Below are positions 5,732-63,018 of a stretch of 64,000 nucleotides of DNA, one piece after another. Numbering within the stretch: the first letter of the stretch is position 1; each line of letters starts with the position of its first letter. The DNA is taken from IMG/VR virus record IMGVR_UViG_3300042731_007874. One strand, written 5' to 3'. The position numbers and the translations under genes were made by a program. The notes beneath the pieces were generated by a model, which made no database searches, was not told where the DNA came from, and saw only the letters and a list, made by a program, of their open reading frames with translations. The stretch comes from a virus.

Positions 5732-6028
5732 TTGAGTAAAAAAGTAAAGAAAACAAAACCCGAAGAAATAATCCCAGAGCATGTCTTAAATGGAGAAATT
5801 ACTTCGGTTAGGGTTTATTTTGACGATAATGGAGAACATTATATTAAAATCATAACGACAGGAGAAATTGAAAGACAAGATTTATTATGGGACGACATGA
5901 CAAATCAAGAAAAAAAGTTATGTACCGATGCTTGGGATCTTGCTCTTGATCACCTAGATGTAGAAGAATCGATGGGAAGTTTTATTCCGAAAACTAGGAG
6001 TAATTATGTCAAAATCAAAAATAGATAG
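5732..6028 (+). CDS. Hypothetical protein
   Basis: ORF with SD-like AAGGTG and TTG start, in operon context. Confidence 0.5.
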   Translation: MSKKVKKTKPEEIIPEHVLNGEITSVRVYFDDNGEHYIKIITTGEIERQDLLWDDMTNQEKKLCTDAWDLALDHLDVEESMGSFIPKTRSNYVKIKNR

Positions 6029-29031: not shown

Positions 29032-30018
29032 TTATTTTGCTGTGTTAACAACTAACGCTTTTCGGGTTTCTTTATCAAGGGAAGAAAACCTGCTTCTTCC
29101 AATTCCGCCGCAATCATTACATCTAAAAGATTTATATTTACCTGCAGGAGTAATATAACTTCCTCTCCAGTTAAGAGAAGTAGAACCACAATGTCCGCAT
29201 ACAGGTTCTTTGGACTCTAGATAAACTCCAATATTAGGAACAGAAGTAAACCATGGAAGCATTTCAAGAAAGACTTCTTCTAATAATGTAACATCATAGT
29301 TATTATATTCGAGCATTCTCTTTAATGCTTTTCGATTTCCTTGATCACACTGTCTCCATAACTCAAAATCAGTATGTAGCTTTTCTTTTCTGGAGATGAT
29401 CTGAGTTATCCAGTTTAGTTTATGAGATGTAAACCCAAAGGTTTTTCTACTCTGTTCTAAAGTATCTATAACCGCAAATGGAGTTGTTGGCTTCATCTTG
29501 TTACAAAAGAACCTGGCCTTTAGTTTTTTGACATCAAAATGAGTTCCATTATGAGCTACACAAATATCACATTCTTCTAATAGATCCCAGATTCCTTTAA
29601 GGATTCTTTTGTCAGATCTTTGTGGCGCTTCATATGGGGTTAAGATATCTGAATACATTTTTGAATCAAACAACCATTTAGCAGACCAAGATAAAGCACA
29701 CCAGTCCTTAATTATCATTTCTATAGGAATGTTTTGTTTGAATAAACCCCATACATAAGACTGAATAGGCAATGTTTCTATGTCAAAAATAAGTATTTTT
29801 GGAAATGATTTAGAGTTTTTTATTGATTTATTTTCTGTTCTTTTTAAGAACTTACGGATTGCTTCTTTGCTTTTATTAGAGCCAATGAGCTTAAGCTCTT
29901 TTCTTATCTGTTTATAAGAATATCTTTGCCATTTTAGTTTTTTGGCAAGATTGCTTTCTTGTTCAGTCCAGTTCATTATTGTCCTTTCAGTTAAGTAAAC
30001 TTTTAGAGTTGGTTTCAA
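29032..30018 (-). CDS. DEDD/RNase H-like 3'-5' exonuclease with N-terminal HTH and C-terminal zinc ribbon
   Basis: FDIET, HNG..FD, IDTL, YN.YDV; CGHCG...CNDCG. Confidence 0.8.
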   Translation of the reverse strand: MKPTLKVYLTERTIMNWTEQESNLAKKLKWQRYSYKQIRKELKLIGSNKSKEAIRKFLKRTENKSIKNSKSFPKILIFDIETLPIQSYVWGLFKQNIPIEMIIKDWCALSWSAKWLFDSKMYSDILTPYEAPQRSDKRILKGIWDLLEECDICVAHNGTHFDVKKLKARFFCNKMKPTTPFAVIDTLEQSRKTFGFTSHKLNWITQIISRKEKLHTDFELWRQCDQGNRKALKRMLEYNNYDVTLLEEVFLEMLPWFTSVPNIGVYLESKEPVCGHCGSTSLNWRGSYITPAGKYKSFRCNDCGGIGRSRFSSLDKETRKALVVNTAK

Positions 30019-33000
30019 TTATCTCTTTGTATTTATTGGCCTGCACCCACTGAGATTCACTAGTGGTCTCAGATGGGATAAACTCAACAATACAGTCAGA
30101 AAGATGAACTTTAATAGGAGATAGCTCTTTCTTTACAAAAGATGGGTTAATAAGATTATTTATAATAAGTTTAACGATTGGAGGACTATCGTCTTGTTGT
30201 ATCAGTCCAACTCTGGCATCAGCAATAAAGATTCGGTCTTCTTTTGCTTTCTCTTTAACTTTTTCCCAGGTCTTTGGAAAAATAGTTGCATCTAACTTAC
30301 CAGTTTGATCTTCTACAAGGAGAGTTGCATAGTTTTGTTTCTTTTTGGAGCACTTTGTTTTTAAAGAAGAAACAATTATTGGAAGATGAATCTTTTCTTT
30401 ATCTTTAACCTCTCCTGCTTGTAGATCTTTAATCTGGTATTTATAATTCGACAACACCTTAGAATAATCATCTAATGGATGTCCTGTCAAATAGAATCCA
30501 AGTGTTTTGCGTTCTAAACGAAGCCTTTCTTTTCTAGACATCTCTTCTGGTTCTGGCAAAACAAGATCTACTGGTTTGTTTTCTTCTTTCATTTTTGGTA
30601 ATCTTCTTGGTGGTTTATCTCCTCTCTCAACTGCTTCTTTAATTTCTTTATTTCTTACTTCTCGTTTCTTTATTCCTTCTTCCCATTTTAGTTTTCGTTT
30701 TTGTATTGCAATAAGTTCTTCAATGTTTTCAACAATTTGATGGCGGCCAAGAGAAGAAATTCCTTCTAACGCGCCACATTCTGCCAATGCTTCAATATTG
30801 TTTTTTGGTATTTTGTTAATAACTAAATCTGCCAAGGAAGTAAACCCTTCACTTGGTCGTTTCTCTACCAAAGAACTACAAGCTTTTTCTCCTAATCCCT
30901 TTATTCCTGACAAGCCAAAAACAATGGTTCCATTATCAATAGTAAACTTACTATAAGATCTATTTACGTCTGGAGGAACTAACGGAATCTCTTTAGTTCT
31001 AATTGCATAAATATATTTAATAATATCATCTTGATTTTCACAGTTGTTTAAAATAGCTGTATAAAATTCTACAGGATAGTGGGCCTTTAACCATCCAGTC
31101 CAGTATGACAAGAATGAATAGGCACATGCATGTCCAAGACAAAATCCATATGCTGCAAACCCCTCAATCTCTTCAAATAATTTATTAGCTAAACTTTTAT
31201 CAGTTCCATTTTTAATACATCCAGAAATGAATTTTTCTTTTTCTGCTTTCATTTTTTCTGGAATCTTTTTGCCAACTATGCGGCGCATATTATCGGCTTC
31301 TGTATCAGAATAACCTGCAACAGCAATACAGATTCTAGAAATTTGTTCTTGAAAAACAATAAGTCCATAAGTATCTTTTAGTATCTCTTCTAGTTCTGGA
31401 ATATCTAATTTATATTTTTCTCCTTGTCTTCTTTTTATATAGGTTTCTGCAACACCACTAGACAAAGGTCCTGGACGATAGATGGCCGTACATGCAGAGA
31501 GATCTTCTATCTTGTTTGGTTTAACTTGCATGCATAATTCTTTAAATCCAGCTGAGGTCTCAAACTGGAAAATTCCATCTAGGTCACCATTATGAAAAAG
31601 CTTATAGGTTTTAGGATCTCCGTCTTCTAAAGACAATAAGTTAATCTCTTTACCAGTTGTTTCTTTAATAAAGTTTCTGGTATCAGAAATAATTGACAAA
31701 GTTTTTAGTCCCAAGAAGTCAAACTTAACAAGACCAATGTCTTCAATATCCTTCATATCAAACTGGGAAGCAGTTTCTCCATTTCGACCGGCAAATAAAG
31801 GAATAATTTCATTAACGGGGTCATCTGAAATAACAACTCCTGCTGCATGAATCCCCATTTGCATTTTAAGACCTTCTGATTTGCGTGCTAAATCAACTAC
31901 TTCAGGATATTTTGTGTTTAGAAGATCTTTACTTTTTTCTAGTATTTCATTAAACTTTTGTGTTTTTCCTGCAATATCTCCAGGAATTAAACTTGCTAAA
32001 TAATCTTGCACTGAAGGAGAATAGCCTAGCACCCTTGCAAAAGCTCTTAAAGATCCTCTTGGTTTAAATTCTGCATATGTGCCAATTTGAGCAACTTTAT
32101 CAGATCCATATTTTGACATAATATATTTAAGTAATTCATTTCTTCTGTTTCGATCAGCGTCATAGTCAATATCTGGAAGAGAGACTCTAGATTTATTTAG
32201 AAACCGAGAGAAAGGAAGTTTATATTTAATTGGATCTACGTGTGTAATTCTCAAAGAATAACAAACTAAACTAGCAGAACTAGATCCTCTGCCAGGAGAA
32301 GGAGTAAAATTGTTTTGTTCACACCAGTTAGCAAAATCTTGTACTATAAGAAAATAATTTGAGAACCCCATTTCTTTAATCACTTCAAGCTCATAGTCTA
32401 ATCGATTTTGGTATTCTTTTGTTATATTATTAGGAAAACGTTTACATAATCCGGCTTGGGCCAAACTCTTAAGTTCTCCTTCTGCTGATTTATTAGTTGA
32501 TATTTTATATACTGGCCAAATAGTTCTAGAATGATCCCATTCTACGTTACATTTTGATGCAATTTCATTTGTTATATCAAGAGCAGGATAATATTTAGGA
32601 TCAAACATTTCTTCCATTTCGCCGCGACTCTTGAACCAATTTTGATTTGAATCAAATATAAGATCTCCTGATGTTATTTTACATACATGATTATGTAATA
32701 CATGATCTTCTTTATTTTGATAATGGGCGTCTTGAGTAATAACTAAAGGAATATTTATTTCTTCAGAAACAAGTTCTAAGCAATTATTTAATCCAAGCTG
32801 CCAGCTTAAATTATGATTTTGTATTTCTATATAAAAATTATCTTTAAATATTTCTTTAAGAACTTTTGCATGTTTGAGAGCCTGGCTATATTTATCCTCT
32901 AAAATATTAACAGCAATATGACCACTGCCGCATCCAGAAAGCACTACAAGCCCTTCTGAGTGCTCTTTAAGCAGTTCTATATCACAGCGTGGCTTCCCAT

Positions 33001-33364
33001 AATAGAGACCATCTTGCCAGCTTCTGGAGGTTAGTCGAAATATGTTTTTCAAGCCTTCTTTGTTTTTGGCAAAAACAGTTAAATGATAAGAAGTTTTAGA
33101 ATAGTTTTCTAGTCTTTCTTTTGTAAATCTACTTTCTGGGGCAACATATAATTCAATTCCATAGATAGGTTTTATATCTGCTTTTTTGCATTCTTTCTGT
33201 AACTTAAGTAAACCTCCTGCTCTACCATGATCGGTAACAGCAACAGCGGACATTTCAAGACTTTTAGCCTTTGTTACAATCTGTTTTACAGTTTGAATTC
33301 CGTCTTGTGGTGAATAATCTGAGCTAACCTAATGAGTGTGGAGATGAATAAAATTCTTCCCCAC
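29987..33364 (-). CDS. dnaE: DNA polymerase III alpha subunit, with an in-frame TAG at codon 12 of the likely reading frame
   Basis: TDHG, PGRGS, PDID.D, G.HAAG, KFD.LGL..L, FQEQ, GIKGLG. GTG at 33364 with SD AAAGGA gives MGKNFIHLHTH*VSSDYSPQDG in frame with the tracked ATG at 33253. Confidence 0.93.
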
Positions 33365-34079: not shown

Positions 34080-34724
34080 TCAGGCTGAAGTTTGATCTGT
34101 TATAAAGTTAACGTTTCCATTTCCCTCAAGATAACAAAAGGAAGTTCCTTTTTGGTCTTTCTCTATTTTATATTCAACTGTTCCATGAAAATCTTTAATA
34201 ATGGTTGCTAGTCTAGAAGAAGATAATTCTTCTACTTTTGGATTGAAACTTAAGACTTCTTTTAGTAAGAAAACTCCTACAAGACCGGCGTCGGCACAAA
34301 AATACCCTAAGACTGAGTTGTTTTCTTTATTAAGTGTAGTACAACCCCAATCTCCATATATTGTTCCTTCCCAAATATAGTTAGTAAAGCCAAAGTTTTC
34401 TAATCCTTCTCCTGTATAAATATTTAACTCGTTTGAATCCCATAGGGTTCTTCCTTCTTTAAATACATCTCCTTTGTCAATATAACAAGGATCTGTAATA
34501 ATAATATCTCCATCAAATCTCTTAATAATTGGATTTGAAATGACAAGTATAGAATTTTGATTTCTTTTAATAAGATTCTTTCCTATTAGTTGACTAACAG
34601 AAGATCTAAATTCTTCTTCTGTATAAAAATGAAAAGTTATAAGATCTTTTTTTAGTTTTTCTTCGTTTGTTTCTATATTTCGTTTCACAATATCAAATAT
34701 TTCTGTTTCTGTATAAGTTAACAT
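34080..34724 (-). CDS. Hypothetical phage protein
   Basis: IIITDPCY...T.YGDW...FCADAGLVGVF pattern; SD AGGAG. Confidence 0.6.
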   Translation of the reverse strand: MLTYTETEIFDIVKRNIETNEEKLKKDLITFHFYTEEEFRSSVSQLIGKNLIKRNQNSILVISNPIIKRFDGDIIITDPCYIDKGDVFKEGRTLWDSNELNIYTGEGLENFGFTNYIWEGTIYGDWGCTTLNKENNSVLGYFCADAGLVGVFLLKEVLSFNPKVEELSSSRLATIIKDFHGTVEYKIEKDQKGTSFCYLEGNGNVNFITDQTSA

Positions 34725-34733
34725 TTTTGTCTC

Positions 34734-34880
34734 CTATCTTAGGCTAAGTTTTATAACTATTAAAAGTACTAAACAAACTAAAAGATCAGAAATAGACCCA
34801 TAGTAAACTAGTGCACCAATTCCTCCACCAAGTACAATAAGCCAAAATATTTTTATTATAAGATCTACTAAATATGGCAT
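34734..34880 (-). CDS. Small two-TM membrane protein (48 aa, not in the ORF track)
   Basis: MPYLVDLIIKIFWLIVLGGGIGALVYYG... translated by hand. Confidence 0.5.
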   Translation of the reverse strand: MPYLVDLIIKIFWLIVLGGGIGALVYYGSISDLLVCLVLLIVIKLSLR

Positions 34881-34890
34881 TATTCTTTCC

Positions 34891-35433
34891 CTATTCAGAA
34901 CTCTTATTTGTTTTTACTAAATTTTTAAATTGTCTTTTTCTCTTAGTTAGTTCTCTCATTAACTTAGCTCTGTATACTTTACTGGTTCTTTGTGCAATGG
35001 TAATTCCATTTAGATGATCTATCTCATGTTGTATTATGCGGGCTTCAAGATCTTGAAATATTTCAATTTGTTCTTTAAAATCTTTGTCTATGTAGTTGAC
35101 AAGAACTTCAGTTGCTCTCTTGATTTCTATTTCTGCTCCCAAGAAACTTAAACAACCTTCTCTTCTTAAATCAGAACCAGAAGAATTAACAATTCTAGGA
35201 TTAATCATAATTTGTTTATAAATTCCAGAATCTATATAAATAATAGGTAATTTATATCCTATCTGTGGCGCGGCAATCCCGTTTGCATTATATTCTTTTA
35301 CTATAGATTTCATCTCATTTATTACAAATGTGACAAACTCTTTAAAAGGTGGATCTTTCTCTATCTCTTCTAGATCTATAGGAACTTGTTCTGACAACAA
35401 AAGTTTATTCGGATAAATAATTAATCTACTCAT
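34891..35433 (-). CDS. def: Peptide deformylase
   Basis: GIAAPQIG, EGCLS, QHEIDHLNG. Start at MSRLII, overlapping the thyX stop. Confidence 0.95.
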   Translation of the reverse strand: MSRLIIYPNKLLLSEQVPIDLEEIEKDPPFKEFVTFVINEMKSIVKEYNANGIAAPQIGYKLPIIYIDSGIYKQIMINPRIVNSSGSDLRREGCLSFLGAEIEIKRATEVLVNYIDKDFKEQIEIFQDLEARIIQHEIDHLNGITIAQRTSKVYRAKLMRELTKRKRQFKNLVKTNKSSE

Positions 35434-35974
35434 TTGACTTCTCCATAGCACAAGGGGTTATCTCAAAACATTTCTGATACCATTCACAAGGTGGTCTCAT
35501 ATAAGAAGCTAATATTTGGTCATATTCGTCTGTTGATTTAGCAAGTTGATCTTTAAATTGTTTAAAGACTTCTCTTGTTTCTTTTGCTGCTTTATTACAG
35601 AGTCTTGCTTTTGCAATGTTTAAGATTGCGTTTACATTTAGATCCAGAACCATATTTATAAGTTTACCTTGTTTCTCTTCGGCGCGGGGGATAAGATTAT
35701 TATTCCTATCATCTCTTTGTGAAAAGATATAAGGCTGAGAACCGATATGATGTCTAGAATAATGAGTTGCGACCCAAGAGGGAACATCATAAATAAAGAG
35801 TCTGTATTCAACAGCTCTTATTGGAGAATGAGGAACTCCTCCTGCAGTGTTCAATAGAGAACTCCATAGCCTGGTAGAAATTGGCTTTAGAGAAGTTATC
35901 TGTCCTCCAGAGGTTGCTTTAATTGTTCCAGAAATATATTTTGGCCCACATTTTCTAATATAGTTAACCTTCAT
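35426..35974 (-). CDS. thyX: Flavin-dependent thymidylate synthase-like protein (phage Thy1 type)
   Basis: HSPIR, VPSWVATH.SRH...P...SQR.DR, RLC..A..ETR, P.C. Start at MKVNY (35974). Confidence 0.72.
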   Translation of the reverse strand: MKVNYIRKCGPKYISGTIKATSGGQITSLKPISTRLWSSLLNTAGGVPHSPIRAVEYRLFIYDVPSWVATHYSRHHIGSQPYIFSQRDDRNNNLIPRAEEKQGKLINMVLDLNVNAILNIAKARLCNKAAKETREVFKQFKDQLAKSTDEYDQILASYMRPPCEWYQKCFEITPCAMEKSNE

Positions 35975-35985
35975 TATTGGTCTCT

Positions 35986-36138
35986 TTAGATTTTTTTGTT
36001 TTCTTTTTGAACATAATCCCAACAGAAACCTTTAACCTTAAATTTGCAGTTCTTACATTCTATAAATATATCAAAAGACTTATCATATCTACCTTTTTGT
36101 TCTTTTGTTTTCCCGCAATTTGGACACTTGATTCTCAT
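35986..36138 (-). CDS. Small zinc-ribbon protein (50 aa, not in the ORF track)
   Basis: MRIKCPNCGK...IECKNC; SD GGAGG. Confidence 0.65.
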   Translation of the reverse strand: MRIKCPNCGKTKEQKGRYDKSFDIFIECKNCKFKVKGFCWDYVQKENKKI

Positions 36139-39389: not shown

Positions 39390-39582
39390 GATATTTACTT
39401 ACCATGTATGGCATTAAAATATAAGAGGTAAAATGATCTAGGGTAACATATTCGTGCCAGCCTCCATGTTTATGATAGTCAAGGTTTTCTTGAAGAAAAA
39501 TCTTTTTCCCTTTTATTTGATATACATATATCTGTTTTGAAAAGTTATCCATTTTACTGTCCTTTCTTAATACCAATTCCAA
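39379..39582 (-). CDS. Hypothetical protein
   Basis: ORF in operon. Confidence 0.45.
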   Translation of the reverse strand: MELVLRKDSKMDNFSKQIYVYQIKGKKIFLQENLDYHKHGGWHEYVTLDHFTSYILMPYMVSKYHEN

Positions 39583-39995
39583 GAGTCATTGTATATACTA
39601 TATATCTCACCTTTATGGAGGGTTTCTCCTCCATTAGAGGCTCTGAAGATTTCTTTTGAAGAAATTATTGGCTCTTTATAAGAAACAAAAGTACACTTAA
39701 GATTTTCTATTTTTAAGACTTTTACGTTTACAAGTTTAAAATAAATATTTGGTTTTTCTAAGCTAATAATATCTACGTTTATATTAGAAGGAAGCAACTC
39801 TGTTTCTTTTATTTCTTTACATAATGTAAAACTACCTTCTATCTTAGGAGGTATCATTAAAGCAGAATAGGAATTTTGCGTAGTTGATTGTTTATATTCT
39901 AAATAATTTATAGAAGAAATTCCTGTAATATTTGATACTCTATAAGTAATAGACATAGAGATTTTATTATTGTCTGGGTTGTCAAAATATCTCAT
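39567..39995 (-). CDS. Hypothetical protein
   Basis: ORF in operon. Confidence 0.5.
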   Translation of the reverse strand: MRYFDNPDNNKISMSITYRVSNITGISSINYLEYKQSTTQNSYSALMIPPKIEGSFTLCKEIKETELLPSNINVDIISLEKPNIYFKLVNVKVLKIENLKCTFVSYKEPIISSKEIFRASNGGETLHKGEIYSIYNDSWNWY

Positions 39996-40006: not shown

Positions 40007-40432
40007 TTATATTTTTATTTTTTCTATTCCTATTTTCGCGGTTTTAAGAATTTGATTAGCTTCTGTATTTCGATAGTCTTCTAGATAATATATTTTCTGA
40101 ACACCGCCAAGCTGAATTAAACGTTTAGCGCACATCTTACATGGAGATACTGTTATAAAGACAAGCTTTGGTGTAGATATAGGTTCAGAGCATGAAATAA
40201 TAGCATTCTCTTCAGCATGTAAACATCCACAATTACCAACTTCTGAACTATCACAAGAATTGGGAAGAGAAACAGCATTTCCATTATATCCAATTGACAA
40301 TACACGTCTAAAGTCACTTGAAGTAATTACACAACCAACTTGTTTTCTAGAACAAGTAGAACGTTTAGCAATAGTTATAGCTAATTGTATATAAATTTCT
40401 TGAAAAGATGGCCTATTATTAGAGCTTGACAT
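40007..40432 (-). CDS. dCMP deaminase (ComEB-like)
   Basis: RSTC.R.QVG, GYNG, HAE.NA, PC.MC. Confidence 0.93.
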   Translation of the reverse strand: MSSSNNRPSFQEIYIQLAITIAKRSTCSRKQVGCVITSSDFRRVLSIGYNGNAVSLPNSCDSSEVGNCGCLHAEENAIISCSEPISTPKLVFITVSPCKMCAKRLIQLGGVQKIYYLEDYRNTEANQILKTAKIGIEKIKI

Positions 40433-41490: not shown

Positions 41491-42474
41491 TTATTCAATT
41501 CCTCTGTTTGATAAAACTTCTTCTTTAATTTTTTCTAGTGTTTTTGGAGTATCTTTAAGCCATTGTAATGTATTTGCTTTTCCTTGTCCTATGTTATTTT
41601 CTTCGTAAGAGAACCATGCTCCGGATTTCTTTATAATTCCATCTTCAACAGCTAAATCCAGTAGTTCTGAATCTTGATCAATTCCTTTACCAAAAATCAG
41701 ATCAAACTCTGCTTCTTTAAATGGAGCAGATAATTTATTTTTTAAAACTTTTACTTTAGTCCTGTTCCCAACCACTTTATCTCCAAGCTTGACATCTCCT
41801 ATCCTTCTAATTTCTAGTCGATGAGAGGCATAATATTTTAGAGCGTTTCCGCCAGTTCCAATATTGGGATTGCCATACATTACATTAATCTTACTTCTAA
41901 ACTGGTTTAAGAATAGAATTGTAGTGTTTGTATTAGCGGCGGCTCCGGTAATCATTCTCATTGCTTGACTCATCATCCGCGCTTGACGTCCAACATGATT
42001 ATCGATTATTTCTCCATCAAGCTCAGCTTTTGGGGTAAGAGCAGCAACCGAATCAATAACTATAAGGGCAACTTCTCCGGTCTCTGCTAACTTTTTGGCA
42101 ATATCTAGTCCTTGTTCTCCGTAGTCAGGTTGAGAAAGAATCATTTTACTCAAATCCACACCAAGAGTCTGACAGTAAGACAAATCTAAGCTATGTTCTG
42201 CATCTATATAAGCAGCAATTTGTCCTTGCTTTTGGACATTTGCAACCGCATGCAATGCAGCTGTTGTTTTACCACTTTGTTCTTGTCCAATTATCTCTAC
42301 AATTCTTCCTCTTCGATAACCGCCAATACCAAGAGCTAGATCTAAATTAATGGATCCCGTTTTAATAATATCTTCTGGTTGTATTTTCGGAACTTCATTA
42401 AAGGAAGTAGCTGCTCCTTCTCCATATATTTTATTAATTGTTTTTACGACTATGTCTAAAGTATCTTTTGTCAT
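41491..42474 (-). CDS. recA: RecA recombinase
   Basis: TGS..LD.ALGIGG..RGRIVEI.G...SGKTT, IDAEH, SQPD.GEQ, DSVAAL.PKAE, GGNALKYYAS.RLEIRR, KNK..APFK, KSGAWFSY. Confidence 0.97.
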   Translation of the reverse strand: MTKDTLDIVVKTINKIYGEGAATSFNEVPKIQPEDIIKTGSINLDLALGIGGYRRGRIVEIIGQEQSGKTTAALHAVANVQKQGQIAAYIDAEHSLDLSYCQTLGVDLSKMILSQPDYGEQGLDIAKKLAETGEVALIVIDSVAALTPKAELDGEIIDNHVGRQARMMSQAMRMITGAAANTNTTILFLNQFRSKINVMYGNPNIGTGGNALKYYASHRLEIRRIGDVKLGDKVVGNRTKVKVLKNKLSAPFKEAEFDLIFGKGIDQDSELLDLAVEDGIIKKSGAWFSYEENNIGQGKANTLQWLKDTPKTLEKIKEEVLSNRGIE

Positions 42475-46666: not shown

Positions 46667-49600
46667 TCAGGAGCAACCCCCAAAATTTTCTCCACAATTA
46701 GTACAATAGTGACAGGTTCCGCTTTGTTGCATAAACCCGCCACATTCTGGACATACATTTTCATATGTTTGAATTCCTATTTCTTGTTTTTCTTCTTTTA
46801 TTTTATCTAGAGGTAACTCTAGTTGTTTGTTTAGAAAATTATTTTCTAACCACTTAAATATATAATCTATAATAGAAGTACAGAATCTTATATCTTCGTT
46901 TTGAGTTATTCCATTTGGTTCAAATCGTTGACCTTTAAATTTATCTACTAGGTCTTTGAGTGGAACCCCATATTGCATAGCAATGGAAACCATTGTTGCA
47001 AAGGCATCTAGCATTCCAAGTACAAAACTTCCTTGCTTCGACGCGCGGATAAAAATTTCTCCTGGCTCGCCATTCTCGTATAAACCTACATGTAGGTATC
47101 CTTCAAATCCAGCAATATCTATTTTATGTCTTATAGTTTTAATAGACGCAGGAAGCTTATTGCGGGTTGGCTGATAAATTATCTTAGTTTCAACCTTTGT
47201 CTTTTCTTTCTTTGCTTTTTTATTAGCATCACTTAGTGGTTGTAATTCTTTAGAGCCGTCTCTATAGACCGTAATACCTTTTAATCCTAGCTCCCAGGCC
47301 ATAATATATGCTCTCTCAATATCTTCCACAGTTGCCTCTGAAGGAAGATTCGTGGTCTTGCTCAACCCCATAGAGATAACTTTCTGTAGAGCAGCTGTCA
47401 TTAAGAGATGATCCTTCCAATGAATCTCGTTAGCTGTTTTTAATACTTCTGGATCTTTTTCTTTATAAAGAGTGTTATATTTTTTTACACAATCAGGAAC
47501 CCATTCTAGAGTACCACCACCAGATAATTGTTTTGTTTGTTTTAAAGCAAAGAGAGGTTCAATCCCAGTCCCACTAGAATCTACCATCATTCCTGTTGTT
47601 CCATTTGGAGCTAGTGAGGTTACTGTACAATTTCTAATTCCATGTGTAAAGATCTCATAATTATAATAGTCTTTAAGAACTTTATTATAAACATAGAGAG
47701 TTGAATCTCTTTCTTCTTCGAATCTTTTAAAAGGACCTAGTTTTTTAGATAAATTAATACTTTCTTTTGTACAAAGTTCCGTAATCATATAAATAATTCT
47801 TTGAGCAGCTTCTCTCCCCTTCTCTGAATTATAAGCAAGTCCTTTCTTGATTAGAAAACCAGCTAAATCTGTTGCTCCAATTCCTAATGGTCTTGTTTCA
47901 ATTGCTTCTTTTTTAAATTCTTCTGTTGGATAATCTGCGTTTCCAATTAAGATATCCATTGCGGTTACAACTATATTACAATCTTTTTGTAAGAGACCTT
48001 CAAGAGTATATCCCTTATTGTCTACATATTTTGATAGATTAAAACAAAACAATTGACAACATCCCCAAGGGGGAAGGTAGACCTCTCCACAATTGTGAGC
48101 AACAAAACCTTCAATGATCCCCCAATGTTTATCTGTATCAATAGAGAAATCAAAAACTTCTTCTTCTCCATTATCTTCCATCTTTATTATTTTGCTTGAA
48201 AGATCGTCAAAAGACATTATCTGTTTACCTAGCAAATCGATTGCTTTACATTTAGAACCATCTTTTAAAATCCAAATATGATCTGGTGTGCATTTAAGGA
48301 CATGTCCTTTTTCTGTTGTTAGTTTTATTGTATTTTTAATACCACTTGACCAAACTTTTCCTTTTGCTATTTGTCCATATCTGTTATTAATAGGGTTAAT
48401 AAGATCAATCTCTTCTTTAAGAAGGGCTAATTCTTTAAATGATTTTGCTCCATTTTTAGTATAAAGCCTCATATCCCCAGTAAAACATGGATTTGAACAT
48501 TCAATATCTCCAGTATTCTTTAATGGATTATAGACATTAATAGTATCGGAAAATTGTAATCCTGGATCTCCAGTATACCAAGCTTGAGTAGCGATTTTTC
48601 TAAATAAATCTTTTGCCTTAACTGTTTTTGCTATTTGTTTATTTCCTCTATTATAAAGATTCCAATCTAGATCTTCTTTTACTGCCTTCATAAACTCATC
48701 TGTAACAACAACTGAATGGTTAGCATTTTGGAAATCAACAGTAGAATAAGCTTCCTCTATTGGGATTCCAGCTTCAATTAAAGTTCTGGCTTTATTTTCT
48801 TCTTTGCTTTTGCATTCAATAAATTCTTCAATATCTGGATGATTAATATTCATTGCTACAAGGACTGCGGCGCGACGGCTGTTTGAAACAACAATGCCAG
48901 ATCCAAAAACAGTATTATTATTTTCTGGCCAAATAACATAATTATGTCCAGAATTTTTTGTTTTATCATCTGCTGTAAGACAATCAACTTCTAAAGAATA
49001 AACTTCCGAAAACCCCAACTCTTCTATAGAAATAACCTCATGGTTATTTTCTCTTATTTCTTTATAAAAGTTTTCATAAGATCCAAAATGATTTTCTATT
49101 TTTTCAAGTTGTTTTTTGTTACTTACTCCGAGTTTTCCTATTTCTTTTTTTCTTGCTTTAAGATATCTATCAAAGGTAGAAAGATCATGTCCTTTGTTTA
49201 TTAATATATAAGCTAAATTCATCATTCGTTTCTTTGTCGCAAAAGGCTGCATCTTTCTTGCACGAGAGGTTGTCATTTGTTTAGAATGAATTTCTTTAAG
49301 TTTTGCAACCTTGTCTTTATTTTGCCAAAATGGAGAAGTTCTGTGCATTGGGTTTTCTTCTCCGGATTTTCCAAAATATTGGTTTTGAAAAACATGAAGG
49401 CCTTTTTCTGCTAATTCTTTCCCATGGATAAAAGAATGCTCTTTAGGAGATAGAACCTGAAGGTTAGAAAGGTCATTATTATAGCTATTCCCGTCTATAT
49501 GATGGATAACTTTATTCTTTATTTCTTTTTTTAAGATATCTCTGACTAGCATTCGATGAAATAAGTTTTTGCCTTTTTTATTATTTCGTAAATGGATTCT

Positions 49601-50542
49601 TATATATTTATGCATAAAATTATCAATTGAACATTGAAATAAACTCATTCCTTTTGATAGATCTTTTGCATAAATATAATCTTCAGAACCGTTTATTTTA
49701 ATTGGGTGGTCTTTTGTTACAACAAAGGATCCTTTATCAGTAATAATTCTTACTAATTCTTTTTGAAATTCTTGCTTCCATGCTTTTCCTTTCTTTATTT
49801 TGTACTGACCAGAAGGAGGATCATAACTAATTACACAAAAATCTTTCTCTATTAATTTTGAGATTTCAATAGGTCCATTTTCCGTGTATACTTTTTGCCA
49901 AGGAGCAAGACATTTTCCGCCTGACTTTACAACACCCGCTGTTCGATCCCATGGCCTCATAAAAGAAACTGGTCCAGAGCTAGTTCCTTTATTAGATAAT
50001 TTTTCTCCTTTAGCTCGTAATTTAGAGACATTAAACCCAACACCAGATCCAGATTTAAATATACGACCAGATCTAATATGATGAGTAGAAATATCTTCCA
50101 TATTATCTTCAATTGTTGCAAGAAAGCAGGCAGAACTTTGACTTTTATTCTCTGGAACTCCAATATTTAGCCAAACCGGAGTATTAAAGGTACCTCTTTG
50201 ATCAATAAGAATTTCTTTGAGTTTCTTTGCAAATTTAATATAGTCTGGGGCGTCATGTATAGAAGCTTCCCATATCGATAAGTCATTTTTTATAGAGTCG
50301 TTACTATAAAATTCTTTATCTTTAAAGTAATCTTGTTCAACCCCCCATTCTGTTATTTGGTTTACTACTCTATCTATAATTTGTAATACAGAGGTTTCTT
50401 TATCAGTAGCATATTTAGAGGCTACAATTTGGGCAGCTCTATCGCTCCAATCTTCTGGTACTTCAAAATTTTCTTTTCCACTAATAATATTTCCATCTTT
50501 ATCTCTAATAGTTGCATCTACGATCTTGGTTTTAATTGTCAA
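46667..50542 (-). CDS. nrdJ: Class II (adenosylcobalamin) ribonucleotide reductase with two inteins and a C-terminal TSCPD/zinc-ribbon domain
   Basis: FNTP.W.N.G, SACF, GSG.G.N.S.LR, GGK/SRRAA, NP/CGE, APNGT.G, K..T.YRDG; CPECG...CHYC..CGEN.GGCS. TTG start with SD AGGAG. Confidence 0.95.
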   Translation of the reverse strand: MTIKTKIVDATIRDKDGNIISGKENFEVPEDWSDRAAQIVASKYATDKETSVLQIIDRVVNQITEWGVEQDYFKDKEFYSNDSIKNDLSIWEASIHDAPDYIKFAKKLKEILIDQRGTFNTPVWLNIGVPENKSQSSACFLATIEDNMEDISTHHIRSGRIFKSGSGVGFNVSKLRAKGEKLSNKGTSSGPVSFMRPWDRTAGVVKSGGKCLAPWQKVYTENGPIEISKLIEKDFCVISYDPPSGQYKIKKGKAWKQEFQKELVRIITDKGSFVVTKDHPIKINGSEDYIYAKDLSKGMSLFQCSIDNFMHKYIRIHLRNNKKGKNLFHRMLVRDILKKEIKNKVIHHIDGNSYNNDLSNLQVLSPKEHSFIHGKELAEKGLHVFQNQYFGKSGEENPMHRTSPFWQNKDKVAKLKEIHSKQMTTSRARKMQPFATKKRMMNLAYILINKGHDLSTFDRYLKARKKEIGKLGVSNKKQLEKIENHFGSYENFYKEIRENNHEVISIEELGFSEVYSLEVDCLTADDKTKNSGHNYVIWPENNNTVFGSGIVVSNSRRAAVLVAMNINHPDIEEFIECKSKEENKARTLIEAGIPIEEAYSTVDFQNANHSVVVTDEFMKAVKEDLDWNLYNRGNKQIAKTVKAKDLFRKIATQAWYTGDPGLQFSDTINVYNPLKNTGDIECSNPCFTGDMRLYTKNGAKSFKELALLKEEIDLINPINNRYGQIAKGKVWSSGIKNTIKLTTEKGHVLKCTPDHIWILKDGSKCKAIDLLGKQIMSFDDLSSKIIKMEDNGEEEVFDFSIDTDKHWGIIEGFVAHNCGEVYLPPWGCCQLFCFNLSKYVDNKGYTLEGLLQKDCNIVVTAMDILIGNADYPTEEFKKEAIETRPLGIGATDLAGFLIKKGLAYNSEKGREAAQRIIYMITELCTKESINLSKKLGPFKRFEEERDSTLYVYNKVLKDYYNYEIFTHGIRNCTVTSLAPNGTTGMMVDSSGTGIEPLFALKQTKQLSGGGTLEWVPDCVKKYNTLYKEKDPEVLKTANEIHWKDHLLMTAALQKVISMGLSKTTNLPSEATVEDIERAYIMAWELGLKGITVYRDGSKELQPLSDANKKAKKEKTKVETKIIYQPTRNKLPASIKTIRHKIDIAGFEGYLHVGLYENGEPGEIFIRASKQGSFVLGMLDAFATMVSIAMQYGVPLKDLVDKFKGQRFEPNGITQNEDIRFCTSIIDYIFKWLENNFLNKQLELPLDKIKEEKQEIGIQTYENVCPECGGFMQQSGTCHYCTNCGENFGGCS
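48092..48487 (-). mobile_element. Intein 2 (132-aa mini-intein) in the RNR active-site NP|CGE motif
   Basis: Starts CFTGD, block B LKCTPDH, ends EEVFDF...FVAHN before C+1. Confidence 0.92.
48881..49912 (-). mobile_element. Intein 1 (344 aa) carrying an HNH endonuclease
   Basis: Starts CLAPWQKV after GGK and ends IVVSN before S+1. Contains HR..V...IHHIDGN..NN..SNL.....H. Confidence 0.9.
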
Positions 50543-50783: not shown

Positions 50784-51209
50784 TTAGTCTACTATTCTAA
50801 CAAATTCTAATTTGGTACAAACTAATTCTTTAAGATTAAGTTCTTTGTTGTTATAATTATTCTCAATAGCGACAACATCTTCTCTCTTAACGCGAAATTT
50901 TGCGATTTTTTCAAAACAAGAACCACAATTAAATGTAGCTATTTCAAGAGAAGTATAAACATGAAATCCTTCATTAACAACCTTTCTGTCTAGTTCATCT
51001 TTAGTTAGTCCCGAAACCCTATCTATTTGATATACTTTCTGTTTTGAAAAATCCCAAATGAATTCAGGATGCCAGAGAGATCTATAAAAATCTTCATCAT
51101 CCCATTTTCTCAGAACTTTATAAACATAGGCGAACTTTTTACGAGAACCAAACCAACGATTTAAATCTTTTTCGTTTTGGATTTGATCCGACTTAATACG
51201 CAAACACAT
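50784..51209 (-). CDS. MCL-family paralog 1 (unknown, ART-like motif pattern)
   Basis: MCL.I..DQ, WFG.RKKFAYVYK, G(F/L)HVYTSL, KFRV, E.VCTKL.FV. Confidence 0.85.
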   Translation of the reverse strand: MCLRIKSDQIQNEKDLNRWFGSRKKFAYVYKVLRKWDDEDFYRSLWHPEFIWDFSKQKVYQIDRVSGLTKDELDRKVVNEGFHVYTSLEIATFNCGSCFEKIAKFRVKREDVVAIENNYNNKELNLKELVCTKLEFVRIVD

Positions 51210-52696: not shown

Positions 52697-53122
52697 TTAA
52701 TCCTCTAAAACCTTAACAAACGTTAACTTTCTACAAAAAGCTTCACGACAACTATTATCTACAGCAACTATATCTTTTTTTAAAACCTTAAATTTTACAA
52801 TTATATCACTAGGATATTTCTTTCTTTTGGCTTCTTTGAGAGAAGTACATACATGAAGCCCCACACAAATCCTTCCTAAATCAAGTTCATCTTCGGTAAC
52901 TTTATAAGATCTTTTTACTTGAAAGATCTTTTGTTTTCTAAAGTTCCATTTAAAAAACTCAAAGTATGGAGACTTATATACTATTGATTGGCCAAGGTTT
53001 CCAGGTAATTTAGTTGTTTTTCTTAGGAATTTATAGACATAAGCAAACTTTTTACGAGACCCAAACCAATGATCTAGGTCTTTTTTATTTTGGCTTTGAT
53101 CTGGATTGATTAACAAACACAT
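52697..53122 (-). CDS. MCL-family paralog 2
   Basis: Same conserved blocks as 50784-51209. Confidence 0.85.
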   Translation of the reverse strand: MCLLINPDQSQNKKDLDHWFGSRKKFAYVYKFLRKTTKLPGNLGQSIVYKSPYFEFFKWNFRKQKIFQVKRSYKVTEDELDLGRICVGLHVCTSLKEAKRKKYPSDIIVKFKVLKKDIVAVDNSCREAFCRKLTFVKVLED

Positions 53123-53125
53123 TTT

Positions 53126-53605
53126 TTACTCCTTATTTTTTATTTCTATAGTTAAGTCACCTTTTGTAATAATAATATCTCCTCCTCCTAGTATATTTTT
53201 AAGATTTGATAGATATTCTACTTCTTTCTCAGAGAGCTGTATTTGGCCTCCAAGGCCAATTTCTACATTCTCTTTACTTACTATCATCTTTGTCTCTTCT
53301 TCTGTCTTAATCCATTCTAGGGCTTCCTGGAGGGTTTCTAGAGTATCTCTTTTACATTCAGGATCAGAAATCATCTTTTGAAAGCTTCTTGCTTTAAAAA
53401 TTTTATTCTCAACATCTTTTTTTATTTGATTATAGGCGCGGTTGCCAAAGACGACTAAAACGTCCTCTGGAAGAATCTCTCTTTCTTCGTAAAAAACATC
53501 CCATAGTATAATTTCTTTATCAATTTCTTTTTTAAACCACTCACAAATATCAGCTAGAAGTTTTTTTTGAGATTTACCTAAAGTAGGAAAGGCAAAAATT
53601 AACAT
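53126..53605 (-). CDS. Hypothetical protein
   Basis: ORF between paralogs 2 and 3; VVFGNRA weakly recalls a UDG-fold strand. Confidence 0.5.
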   Translation of the reverse strand: MLIFAFPTLGKSQKKLLADICEWFKKEIDKEIILWDVFYEEREILPEDVLVVFGNRAYNQIKKDVENKIFKARSFQKMISDPECKRDTLETLQEALEWIKTEEETKMIVSKENVEIGLGGQIQLSEKEVEYLSNLKNILGGGDIIITKGDLTIEIKNKE

Positions 53606-54036
53606 TATTCAATTACCTTGACAAATTCTAATCTAGTACAAACTAATTCTTTAAAACGATATTTTTCTGAAATAAACGAACTATTTTGAATAGCAATAAT
53701 ATTTTCTTTTCTAACTTTAAATTTTACTATTACTGAGTTTGGCTCATTAGAGATCCATGATTTAGCTAATTTAAGACTAGTATAAACGTGAAAACCTTTG
53801 TTGATTTGTTCTGAAAGTAATTCGCTTTTAGTAAGTTTGAGATCTCTATCGACTTGAAATTCTTTCTGTTTTTCAAAGTCCCACTTAAAATTACCATAGA
53901 GAAGAGATCTGTAAAAAGACTCACATGACCATTTTCTTAATACCTTATAAACGTATGCGAATTTTTTTCTATTACCGAACCACTTCTTTAAGTCTTTCTC
54001 GTTTTGATCTTGATCTGGTTGAATCCATAAACACAT
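53605..54036 (-). CDS. MCL-family paralog 3
   Basis: Same conserved blocks. Confidence 0.85.
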   Translation of the reverse strand: MCLWIQPDQDQNEKDLKKWFGNRKKFAYVYKVLRKWSCESFYRSLLYGNFKWDFEKQKEFQVDRDLKLTKSELLSEQINKGFHVYTSLKLAKSWISNEPNSVIVKFKVRKENIIAIQNSSFISEKYRFKELVCTRLEFVKVIE

Positions 54037-54047
54037 TTCTTTTTCCT

Positions 54048-54494
54048 TTAATTTTCAATAACTTTAACAAATTCTAATTTGGTACATACAGCTTCTTCGA
54101 AGTTATATTTCTTTACTTTATAATTGTTTTCAATAGCAACAATATTTTCTTTTCTAACTCTGAATTTTACAACTACTTCATTAGAGTCTAGGTAAGGCTT
54201 CATAGATTCTAAATGAGTATATACATGAAGACCTATCTCTATACTTCTATTCTCTAGTTCTTCTTGAGTTGGCTTATGACTTCTCCTCACTTGAAAAACC
54301 TTTTGGTTATTAAAATCCCATTTATAATCTGGAAAACGAGGAGATCTGTAAAAATCTTCATTTGGCTTTTTTACTAATACTTTATAAACATAGGCAAAAC
54401 CTTTATGAACTCCAAACCATTTATGATGAGACTTAAACCATCTTCTTAGGTCTTCTTCGTTCTCTTCTTGATCTGGTTTAATAAATAAACACAT
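54048..54494 (-). CDS. MCL-family paralog 4
   Basis: Same blocks, with a short insertion duplicating the WF motif (RWFKSHHKWFG). Confidence 0.85.
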   Translation of the reverse strand: MCLFIKPDQEENEEDLRRWFKSHHKWFGVHKGFAYVYKVLVKKPNEDFYRSPRFPDYKWDFNNQKVFQVRRSHKPTQEELENRSIEIGLHVYTHLESMKPYLDSNEVVVKFRVRKENIVAIENNYKVKKYNFEEAVCTKLEFVKVIEN

Positions 54495-54529: not shown

Positions 54530-55027
54530 TTACCAAGCAAGGATTCTAGGAATGGCAGCTTCCAGTAGAGTATAAATTACAAACATTTCATCAATAGAGA
54601 TTGGAATTTTTACTTCATTTTTAACAGATCCTTGTTCTTTTTGGCTCATGTTCACCCAAAATGATTTCATTGTTTCATTTGGCCGCGAAATATTAAGAAT
54701 TGTTACTAATTCTCCTTGAGGCTGCCCTTTACTAAGACCAGTATCATGTAATAGTATTAGATTTGATTCGTTTTTTGTCTTTAGAAAAGACAGAATCTTA
54801 CCAATATCTGTAACTTTAAGAGCAAAAACAATTTTACTGTTTTCCCAGTCGTAATTATTTACTCCTATTGTTGGAGCTGCTTCTACAAATACGGCTCCTT
54901 CTGGTTTGTTGTTATTTCCGCTATTGACATATGCGGGCAAAAGGCCAAATCTGATTGCCCCAAACTTTCCTTTTATTCCCTTGTAAATCTTATATTGTAG
55001 CGGTCGTTGATTATTATTCATTTTCAT
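54530..55027 (-). CDS. Whirly-like ssDNA-binding protein
   Basis: IYKG, EG.V....AP..GV..YDW...K.VF.L.VT.IG, HD...KG, F..N.S, IP....E..V, P.IL.W, all colinear with plant Whirly as I recall it. Confidence 0.75.
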   Translation of the reverse strand: MKMNNNQRPLQYKIYKGIKGKFGAIRFGLLPAYVNSGNNNKPEGAVFVEAAPTIGVNNYDWENSKIVFALKVTDIGKILSFLKTKNESNLILLHDTGLSKGQPQGELVTILNISRPNETMKSFWVNMSQKEQGSVKNEVKIPISIDEMFVIYTLLEAAIPRILAW

Positions 55028-55301
55028 TGTTCCTTTCTTGCCATAAATCTCTCATCCAAAGAGCTTGGGTCATAAGCGCATTTCCAATTGTTGGGTTTTT
55101 TGAATAAAGTAAAAGTACTTCTTCAGAAGACAATGTTCCTACATTTTCAAATGAAGAACCAATTGAGTATGTTAAAGTACATAGAAATTCTAAAATTTCT
55201 TTTTTACCGAAACTACTTAGTTTGTTAATTGTTTCTTCTAATAGTTGATAAGTTGGAATTATTTTGTTTGCACCATTCATGTAATATCCTATCTTCTTCA
55301 C
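55014..55301 (-). CDS. Hypothetical protein
   Basis: Operon ORF. Confidence 0.5.
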   Translation of the reverse strand: MKKIGYYMNGANKIIPTYQLLEETINKLSSFGKKEILEFLCTLTYSIGSSFENVGTLSSEEVLLLYSKNPTIGNALMTQALWMRDLWQERNNENE

Positions 55302-55488
55302 TAAATTCTGGTTCTTGTATTAAATGGTAGGGAATTGATTTATTACACCTTGTACACTCCCATTCAAAAACATATCCTTTTTTTGTTTTGGCGGCCACTG
55401 CAGTTAGATATAAAGGCTGTTTGCATTTTCTGCAAGTTGGCATTTTTGTTAATCTATAAGTAGATTGTGCATGGGCACATCGGCTCAT
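55225..55488 (-). CDS. Zinc-ribbon protein
   Basis: CRKC...CTRC; SD AGGAG. Confidence 0.6.
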   Translation of the reverse strand: MSRCAHAQSTYRLTKMPTCRKCKQPLYLTAVAAKTKKGYVFEWECTRCNKSIPYHLIQEPEFSEEDRILHEWCKQNNSNLSTIRRNN

Positions 55489-55492
55489 TTTA

Positions 55493-55690
55493 TTATCTCC
55501 TGATGGTTTTGTCTAATCCTGCAACTGCTTTTTTAAGAGATTCAATTGCTATTCTATTGTTATTAAGAGCGTTAAAAATTTCTTCTCTTGTTGATTCAAC
55601 TTCTTCAAGAGAAGGATTTGTGTCAATACTTCTTTTAATCAAAGATAGTTGTTGTTCTATCGCGTCTAATCTTTCAGCTAAAGTTAACAT
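55493..55690 (-). CDS. Small coiled-coil protein
   Basis: Heptad pattern; overlaps the kinase stop. Confidence 0.5.
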   Translation of the reverse strand: MLTLAERLDAIEQQLSLIKRSIDTNPSLEEVESTREEIFNALNNNRIAIESLKKAVAGLDKTIRR

Positions 55691-56958: not shown

Positions 56959-57387
56959 TTAATCTTCTATAACCTTAACAAAGGTTAATTTGGTACAAAC
57001 TGCTTGTTTGAAATTATCTTCTTTCCGATACCAACCATTTTCGATAGCAATGATGTCTTCTTTTTTAACACGAAATTTTATAATTGCCTCGGCTAAGCTA
57101 CTACAGATATCTTTAGCTTCTTTTAAAGAAGTATATACATGGAGTCCCCAATCTATACTTTCGTTACCTAGTTCAAAGATAGTTGGTTTGAGGTCTCTAT
57201 AGACTTCAAATACTTTTTCTTTAGAAAAATCCCAAATAAAATTATTATAATAATAAGATCGATAGAAACTTTCTTTTTTATTTTTTATTAGAATCTTGTA
57301 GACATAAGCAAATTTCTTTCTATTACCAAACCACTGATTTAGATCCCTATCGTTTTTTCCTTGATCTTTTTTAATATATAGGCACAT
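56959..57387 (-). CDS. MCL-family paralog 5
   Basis: Same conserved blocks. Confidence 0.85.
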   Translation of the reverse strand: MCLYIKKDQGKNDRDLNQWFGNRKKFAYVYKILIKNKKESFYRSYYYNNFIWDFSKEKVFEVYRDLKPTIFELGNESIDWGLHVYTSLKEAKDICSSLAEAIIKFRVKKEDIIAIENGWYRKEDNFKQAVCTKLTFVKVIED

Positions 57388-57398
57388 ATTCTTACTCC

Positions 57399-57824
57399 TT
57401 AGTCTTCTATGACCTTAACAAAAGTTAATTTCCTGCAGACTGCTTCTTTAAAGTTATATTCTGGGTTGTCATAATAATTTTCAACAGCAACAATATCTTT
57501 TTTCTCAACTCTGAATTTTACGATTGTGCTAAAAAAACCTTTAGATCTTTTAGCTTTTTCCAAACCAGTGTAGACATGAAGCCCTTTATTAATTTCTCTG
57601 TTTGTTAATTCTTCTTCAGTTGGTTCTGAATCTCTATTCACCTGAAAGACTTTTCCTTTTCTAAAATCCCAGATAAAACCGTTATGAAACCAAGATCTAT
57701 AAAAATCTTCGTTTTGTTGTTTTTTTAAAACTTTGTAAACATAAGTAAATTTGGTTCTATTCCCAAACCACTTCTTTAGATCTCTTTCGTTTTCTTCTTG
57801 ATCTAAGCTAATTAACAAACACAT
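57399..57824 (-). CDS. MCL-family paralog 6
   Basis: Same conserved blocks. Confidence 0.85.
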   Translation of the reverse strand: MCLLISLDQEENERDLKKWFGNRTKFTYVYKVLKKQQNEDFYRSWFHNGFIWDFRKGKVFQVNRDSEPTEEELTNREINKGLHVYTGLEKAKRSKGFFSTIVKFRVEKKDIVAVENYYDNPEYNFKEAVCRKLTFVKVIED

Positions 57825-62589: not shown

Positions 62590-63018
62590 CTAGTCATCTA
62601 TTACTTTTACGAATTCCAATTTAGTACAAACAAGCTCTGTAAGGTTAAAGCGCGGAGTACGATTATTTTGAATAGCAACAATGTCTTCTCTATTAACCCG
62701 AAACTTTACAACTATCTCAAATAAGTTACCACCACGGACCTCTTTGGCTGTTTTAAGAGAAGCATAAACATGAAAACCTTTTCCGATTTCGCCTATTTTT
62801 AGTTCATCTTTAGTTGGCTTGGCAGGTCTAATTACTTGATATATTTTGGTTTTATTGAAATCCCACTCGAAATTACTATACCAAACAGATTTATAAGAAG
62901 GTGTTTCTGGCCATGTTCGCAAGATCTTATAAACATAGGCAAATTTGGTTCTAGATCCGAACCATCTTTTAAGATCTTTTTCATTCCGATCTTGATCAGA
63001 TTTAATAAATAAACACAT
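62590..63018 (-). CDS. MCL-family paralog 7
   Basis: Same conserved blocks. Confidence 0.85.
   Translation of the reverse strand: MCLFIKSDQDRNEKDLKRWFGSRTKFAYVYKILRTWPETPSYKSVWYSNFEWDFNKTKIYQVIRPAKPTKDELKIGEIGKGFHVYASLKTAKEVRGGNLFEIVVKFRVNREDIVAIQNNRTPRFNLTELVCTKLEFVKVIDD

Follow-up and report, generated by a model that had tools for sequence, protein, structure and literature searches.

A Whirly-family protein of a large uncultured tailed phage and the small gene that precedes it

Described proteins with the Whirly fold

Whirly proteins are intensively studied as guardians of the chloroplast and mitochondrial genomes, and their origin is unexplained. The Whirly/PC4-like superfold to which they belong is also found in MRP1/MRP2 from T. 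brucei and in PUR-alpha, which are RNA matchmaking or transcript-transport proteins. The searchable literature describes the Whirly family as plant-specific or plant-unique. The plant Whirlies are tetramers that bind single-stranded DNA (ssDNA) irrespective of its sequence and, on long ssDNA, assemble in a cooperative manner through the KGKAAL motif's second lysine, which in StWhy2 is K67 and is needed for the assembly of 24-mers (PMC3245945). Strand exchange by the organellar RecA proteins is stimulated by purified Arabidopsis Whirlies or requires them (bioRxiv 10.64898/2026.10.24.761589).

Phages have been credited with the Whirly fold only, by means of structure prediction, in the description of ChmC (PMC11077065) and in a review of the PC4-like superfamily (PMC7549692). 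ChmC of the Chimalliviridae (PhiPA3 gp61, PhiKZ gp67) is a homotetramer that binds single-stranded nucleic acid (PMC11077065). It resembles the protein described here in being phage-encoded and of Whirly-type fold, whereas its beta3-alpha repeats, its RNA preference, its disordered condensate-forming tail and its occurrence in nucleus-forming jumbo phages set it apart. A further parallel is the T4 system formed by gp32, UvsX and UvsY, in which an ssDNA-binding protein, a recombinase and a small helical mediator follow the same logic as the one proposed below. The T4 folds are unrelated to those of the window proteins and the small partner described below has no UvsY-like match, so that the likeness is put forward as a hypothesis of functional analogy.

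The Whirly protein of the window and its family

The window, which is the whole stretch of DNA that was analysed, corresponds to the entry of a virus in IMG/VR (63,970 b, GC ~31%, ~33% complete according to CheckV). It derives from a tailed phage that is large and uncultured. Beyond 9.8 kb, up to the window end, nearly all the genes are placed on the minus strand, and the Whirly gene matches the contig in both GC and strand. In addition to the genes collected in Table 1, the window encodes a uracil-DNA glycosylase (UDG) and an RNA ligase, both on the strand of Whirly, as well as a peptide deformylase, RNase-type genes and a cluster of sugar genes (heptose and GDP-mannose). No tRNA genes are found in the window, and the 10 kb around Whirly gave no megablast match in the GenBank phages. 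The sugar-modification island adjoins the gene of a protein of 781 aa whose beta-roll domain is of the ice-binding type; this is probably a fibre or receptor-binding protein.

Table 1. Coordinates of the features discussed in the text (window positions unless a locus or contig is named)
Feature	Coordinates	Strand	Remarks
781-aa beta-roll protein	6006-8351	plus	PF21300, 71.6 bits
DnaG-DnaB primase-helicase	22110-24527	minus	
DnaE-type polymerase	29987-33253	minus	
Probable further MCL paralogues	39567-39995, 40007-40432	minus	by size and position only
Bacterial-type RecA	41491..42474	minus	PF00154, 354 bits; 12 kb from Whirly
Class II ribonucleotide reductase (RNR)	46667-50542	minus	with HNH intein
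MCL paralogues	50784-51209, 52697-53122, 53605-54036, 54048-54494, 56959-57387, 57399-57824, 62590-63018	minus	
159-aa protein	53126..53605	minus	C-terminal ITKGDL-type motif; conserved downstream of Whirly
Whirly-family protein	54530..55027	minus	165 aa; PF08536, PDB matches, AlphaFold2/Foldseek and pI in the text
Partner	55014..55280	minus	88 aa from ATG; 95 aa if from GTG at 55301
Zn-ribbon protein	55225..55488	minus	87 aa; two CxxC pairs; weak Zn-ribbon Pfam matches
Coiled-coil-like protein	55493..55690	minus	65 aa; first gene of conserved four-gene block
Further copies of the 159-196-aa family	L002 9309-9839; L007 1731-2219; L012 3144-3647; L015 6009-6557; L003 10710-11300		
RecA of 174-kb relative	G001 (contig of L002) 34251-36086		two-piece match in one 709-aa frame
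Candidate divergent SSB of related phage	L011 1231-1848 (G001 169730-170347)		205 aa

The original prediction was that of a phage-encoded Whirly protein at 54530-55027, and an open reading frame (ORF) is present at exactly these coordinates, with an AAAGGA Shine-Dalgarno sequence five bases 5' of its ATG. An alternative start at 55021, two codons later, yields 163 aa and is the choice of gene callers elsewhere. The motifs on which the prediction was built are all found in the translation, in order and including the terminal Trp. Against Pfam, the ORF has a single match, to the Whirly profile PF08536, which at 54.3 bits (E 1.7e-14, profile positions 22-135 of 136) lies far beyond chance and above the curated gathering cut-off of 23 bits; the same result is obtained when the IMG/VR virus record is scanned. 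A phmmer search of all PDB sequences retrieves six distinct plant Whirly sequences (StWhy2, p24/PBF-2 and AtWHY1-3) with E 2e-9 to 4e-8, and the alignment with StWhy2 spans the window protein from residue 12 to the terminal Trp. The other rows of this search are two weak matches, both to one DnaC protein (E 0.008).

The AlphaFold2 model, obtained with 46 homologues (pLDDT 94.0, pTM 0.87), contains two beta-beta-beta-beta-alpha repeats with the strands and helices in the expected order. In Foldseek the model matches the plant Whirlies significantly, in agreement with the family assignment. The best matches are AtWHY1, AtWHY3, potato p24 and StWhy2 (4koo/1l3a/3n1h; E 1e-9 to 1e-8, TM 0.74-0.78), and ranks 1-16 are plant Whirly chains throughout (E 8e-10 to 7e-8, TM 0.71-0.79). 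The second tier is formed by T. brucei MRP1/2 (TM 0.59) and then PUR-alpha (TM 0.40), which share the superfold and have no sequence match. The window ORF is a genuine sequence-level member of the Whirly family (PF08536), which is more than a look-alike fold.

Six residues are invariant in the 46 homologues (G23, Y59, D74, H94, L154 and W165) and E147 is at least 90% conserved. The C-terminal helix (145-162) is followed by W165, and the ...L-G/A-W motif expected for the tetramer core is present. The protein, with a pI of 9.5, ends at this invariant Trp and has no acidic tail. With the plant and algal Whirlies (AtWHY1/2/3, StWhy1 = PBF-2 p24, StWhy2; 4koo, 4kop, 4koq, 1l3a, 3n1h) it shares PF08536 and the double beta4-alpha fold, as well as the YDW and HD motifs, the C-terminal ...L-x-W, a KGK-containing first strand and a core of ~160 aa. 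On the other hand, the identity is ~22-26%, the transit peptide (the domain begins at residue 12 of 165), the C-terminal extension and the acidic tail are lacking, and the gene is placed in a phage operon with a small partner for which no plant counterpart is known. Of the plant KGKAAL motif a part is retained: the first strand of the window protein, YKGIKGKFGA (YKG-x-KGK-x-GA), is a KGK-containing variant of it, and the phage consensus at this site is YKG-xx-GK-x-GA. In the phmmer alignment K19-G20-K21 is paired with the plant KGK, by which K21 would correspond to StWhy2 K67, and FGA takes the place of AAL, with a 3-residue offset. Many phage homologues (P0008, P0014, P0020, P0022, P0039 and P0045) carry an insertion of 20-40 residues between strands 2 and 3 with a Zn-ribbon-like CxxC...C...C spacing, which is absent from the window protein.

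The family is large. A phmmer search of 1.84 billion cluster representatives returned 289 clusters (50% identity) at E <= 1e-3, 118 of which at E <= 1e-10; almost all are short phage-type proteins that stand alone. Among the best 150 of the 289 listed, most have 140-200 aa and most terminate on the conserved Trp or only a few residues away from it. A minority of the same 150 look eukaryotic, either by a length of 230-255 aa or by N-termini of transit-peptide type together with C-terminal extensions, and one eukaryote-type match is named, from the green alga Acetabularia. No characterised phage homologue was found by tblastn of the window protein and two members of other clades against 50,697 GenBank phage records, PHROGs has no family for Whirly, and no paper on a phage-encoded PF08536 member was found in the searchable literature. 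The family is thus absent from the genomes of cultured phages. The window copy stands as an ordinary member within a viral family that is both large and uncharacterised. Among large uncultured phages Whirly proteins are frequent and show deep diversity, although the literature treats them as plant-specific, and the family is a widespread phage gene family and not a plant invention.

The relation to the plant proteins was addressed with a quick maximum-likelihood tree of 149 representatives and a careful one of 49 (LG+C20 PMSF). The two agree; both are unrooted and their sampling is seeded from the phage protein, within the best 150 of the 289 matches and with one named eukaryotic row. The eukaryote-type Whirlies, which are Acetabularia and seven proteins judged eukaryotic by their N- and C-terminal extensions, form one clade (100/99). 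The P0111 group, composed of six short phage-type proteins (99/94), is placed beside this clade on one side of a 98/94 branch, whereas the window protein is found across that branch, in a phage clade of 12 members (100/95). Against the plant structures, the eukaryote-type proteins score 110-132 bits (P0106 and P0135, the two scored of the seven judged eukaryotic), the P0111 group 68 bits and the window protein 41 bits. The two loci of the P0111 group that were fetched (P0111 and P0117) are phage-like contigs in which the partner gene is present. A word-based search for named land-plant sequences, seeded with the Acetabularia protein, returned only this protein itself.

Having no transit peptide and falling outside the eukaryotic clade, the window protein is not a member of the plant organellar subfamily (WHY1/2/3) and, as judged from these sequences, it is not the phage lineage closest to plants. 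As to the idea that a phage Whirly may inform the origin of the family, the phage neighbour of the eukaryote-type clade is the P0111 group, and the window copy lies in another, well-supported clade. Phage Whirlies are candidate sources of the plant family. Tentatively, and with more doubt than confidence, the partner-Whirly pair may be seen as an old viral ssDNA-handling module from a phage copy of which the organellar Whirlies descend, since the nearest neighbours of the eukaryote-type clade are the partner-bearing P0111 group and the remaining deep diversity is viral. Twinkle, T-odd-like polymerases and the phage-type RNA polymerase are phage-derived parts of organelle DNA metabolism. Whirly would join them if this descent were true, and in that case the partner would be a cofactor still missing from organelles and worth a search there.

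The partner gene and the conserved block

The gene immediately upstream of Whirly encodes the small partner, the 3' end of which runs 14 nt into the Whirly gene (8 nt if the second ATG is taken as its start). Whirly homologues were collected from IMG/VR and metagenome assemblies, which provided 13 distinct loci with upstream DNA. A partner homologue is found immediately 5' of Whirly in all of them (13/13), down to a Whirly identity of ~30%, and in most loci the partner stop and the Whirly start overlap or abut. The pairing of the two genes, invariably linked in the 13 loci, is new here, as is the co-occurrence of Whirly with phage RecA described below. Most partner homologues are directly connected by BLASTP. 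A partner HMM built from seven members recovered four held-out loci with 88.6, 68.8, 52.0 and 28.6 bits, and one built from eleven members picked out a single ORF in each locus from a total of 1,275 six-frame ORFs. On unseen loci, in which the Whirlies are ~30% identical, the latter scored 28.8 bits (L019/L020) and 27.5 bits (L021). Five whole viral records with 459 kb in total each yielded one match to the partner profile and one to the Whirly profile, side by side.

The partner is predicted by AlphaFold2 to consist of four helices (pLDDT 90), and its conserved core reads Y-S-I/L-G-x-S-L/I-E followed by N-P-T-x-G-N-A-L-M. The pI lies between 4.2 and 6.8 in 11 of 12 partners, and the Whirlies are basic (pI 8.6-9.5). 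The partner family has no match in Pfam or PHROGs. Comparisons of the fold reached a best E of 1.7 in the PDB (Foldseek) and of 0.17 in BFVD, the latter for an uncharacterised protein of Acinetobacter phage ME3. The best Z in VIA wide was 6.4, which is within the range common for helical models, and the ESM Atlas returned no usable relative (TM <= 0.53 by shape, 0.77 by features). A complex of four Whirly chains and one partner was predicted with a score of 0.20 against a mark of 0.32, a value obtained on the partner chain alone and with controls absent, which speaks neither for nor against binding. Partner and Whirly may be in physical contact, and a role of the partner as adaptor or regulator is a guess.

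A seven-row Whirly alignment as query led to four viral loci, a single-protein query to none, and a 46-row alignment was too diverse. The same search of 185,579 species genomes, which used one narrow peptide pattern and is not a census of bacterial Whirlies, returned one contig only, the Guaymas Basin contig already found. This contig (QMTU01000002.1, L010/L022, 25.7 kb) contains the cassette of Zn-ribbon, partner and Whirly as well as a class II RNR, and was deposited within a MAG labelled 'Thermoplasmata archaeon', probably as a phage contig that was binned wrongly, an archaeal virus being a conceivable source.

In the phage clade of the window, the two genes are the last of a conserved block with the order coiled-coil (65 aa), Zn-ribbon (87 aa), partner and Whirly. 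In the window, L002, L006, L007, L009/L010, L012 and L015, an HMM detected homologues of the Zn-ribbon gene just upstream of the partner, and those of the coiled-coil-like gene were detected at the same position in L002, L006, L007, L012 and L015. In the window, Whirly is flanked by the four-helix partner upstream and by an MCL paralogue downstream. The MCL paralogues are a dispersed family of ~141-148 aa, each starting with M-C-L-x-I-x-x-D-Q; Pfam scans of three copies were negative, and a PHROGs scan of one copy gave only a weak RIIB-like match (E 0.0018). Two of them (54048-54494 and 53605-54036) separate Whirly from the 159-aa gene. The relatives have other small ORFs downstream of Whirly or, in three loci, RNase H directly after it, so the two MCL copies look like insertions.

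The 159-aa protein has no match in Pfam or PHROGs, and homologues of it were found by HMM downstream of Whirly in L002, L003, L004, L007, L010, L012 and L015. Its family comprises proteins of 159-196 aa with a C-terminal ITKGDL-x-I/V-E, placed downstream of the Whirly cassette at eight phage loci. A simple scan revealed no minus-strand terminator-like site from 57.5 to 52.5 kb, and the counts of promoter- and terminator-like sites are no higher than in shuffled sequence. The region is compatible with one long transcription unit.

Proposed role with RecA and alternative readings

The preferred reading, to which a probability of about 0.6 is given, is that Whirly functions as an ssDNA-coating accessory of RecA-dependent replication and recombination, and that it is made together with its partner. 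The role of SSB or recombination factor suggested in the original prediction likewise draws on homology and gene context. RecA genes, high-scoring and of the bacterial type, are found in 5/5 Whirly-bearing viral records at ~10-13 kb from the cassette, a co-occurrence that is suggestive only, the five records being related phages and not independent. No Rad52-type neighbour (PF04098) was matched in the record at E <= 1. By analogy with the plant proteins, the C-terminal helix would assemble the phage Whirly into a tetramer, and a basic beta-sheet face would bind ssDNA without sequence preference. The tetramers may then coat the ssDNA exposed in replication and in recombination-dependent replication, suppress spurious annealing and help the bacterial-type RecA of the phage to complete strand exchange. 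Whirly and the small, mostly acidic, four-helix partner would be translated from one transcript.

A rival reading is that Whirly is the main replicative SSB, which replaces the usual OB-fold protein at the replication fork. The gene is placed among replication genes and, in relatives, directly before RNase H. None of the profiles PF00436 (OB-fold SSB), PF08804 (T4 gp32) and PF10991 (T7 gp2.5-like) reaches its cut-off in the window or in four related records, one of which is 91% complete, the gp32 and gp2.5 scans having no positive control; in the window these three profiles have no match, and the Whirly protein matches Whirly only. However, the window covers about one third of the phage genome. 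Replicative SSBs recruit their partners by an acidic tail, whereas Whirly ends at Trp165 without such a tail. The 91%-complete relative contains an ORF of 205 aa that matches SSB below the threshold (15.8 bits) and bears a long acidic tail ending in DDDPI, in the style of bacterial SSBs; this sub-threshold OB-fold ORF weakens the replacement reading, which is considered unlikely. The ORF itself may be a divergent SSB of that related phage, and no homologue of it was found in the window.

The preferred reading of Whirly as an accessory of RecA takes ssDNA as the ligand. Maize WHY1 and MRP1/2 bind RNA. Since other proteins with the Whirly fold, namely ChmC, MRP1/2 and maize WHY1, have RNA as ligand, the choice of DNA is an assumption, and Whirly could instead act on phage or host transcripts, controlling their stability, translation or localisation in the manner of ChmC or MRP1/2. 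The Whirly fold of ChmC binds RNA and prefers ssRNA over ssDNA (PMC11077065). MRP1/2 are the next-best structural matches of the window protein, and the RNA ligase gene is 3 kb from Whirly. Both in sequence and in structure, however, the plant proteins that bind ssDNA are far nearer to Whirly than MRP1/2 or PUR are, and ChmC has no detectable sequence similarity to it. The conserved neighbours in relatives (RNase H, RecA and RNR) belong to DNA metabolism, and a function on RNA appears improbable.

Still less probable is a part in host takeover or counter-defence, for example by hiding ssDNA from Shedu or by compacting the host nucleoid. In Shedu type 1A, domains of sPC4/Whirly fold are proposed as nucleic-acid sensors (bioRxiv 10.1101/2023.08.10.552793), and the Whirly region is rich in small ORFs of unnamed families and in inserted MCL paralogues, but the stable place of the gene beside replication genes in distant phages suits core DNA metabolism better than an arms-race gene. 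A recent capture from a plant or alga, or contamination by one, which the description of the family as plant-specific might suggest, has a negligible chance, as the gene forms part of a virus contig of 64 kb that it matches in GC and strand, overlaps a phage-specific partner gene, has hundreds of short relatives without transit peptide in metagenomes, is only ~25% identical to the plant proteins and falls in a 100/95 phage clade far from the eukaryote-type one.

With Whirly as an accessory of RecA, the toolkit of phage replication and recombination would gain an ssDNA-binding protein (by homology) that is not of the OB-fold type. Whirly, partner and RecA together would form a minimal and easily expressed system to study how Whirlies modulate recombination. 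In the 174-kb relative, the RecA match is divided into two pieces within a single frame (Table 1), which suggests that this recA holds an intein or another insertion. The RNR of the same relative carries LAGLIDADG inteins, whereas the intein in the RNR of the window has an HNH domain.
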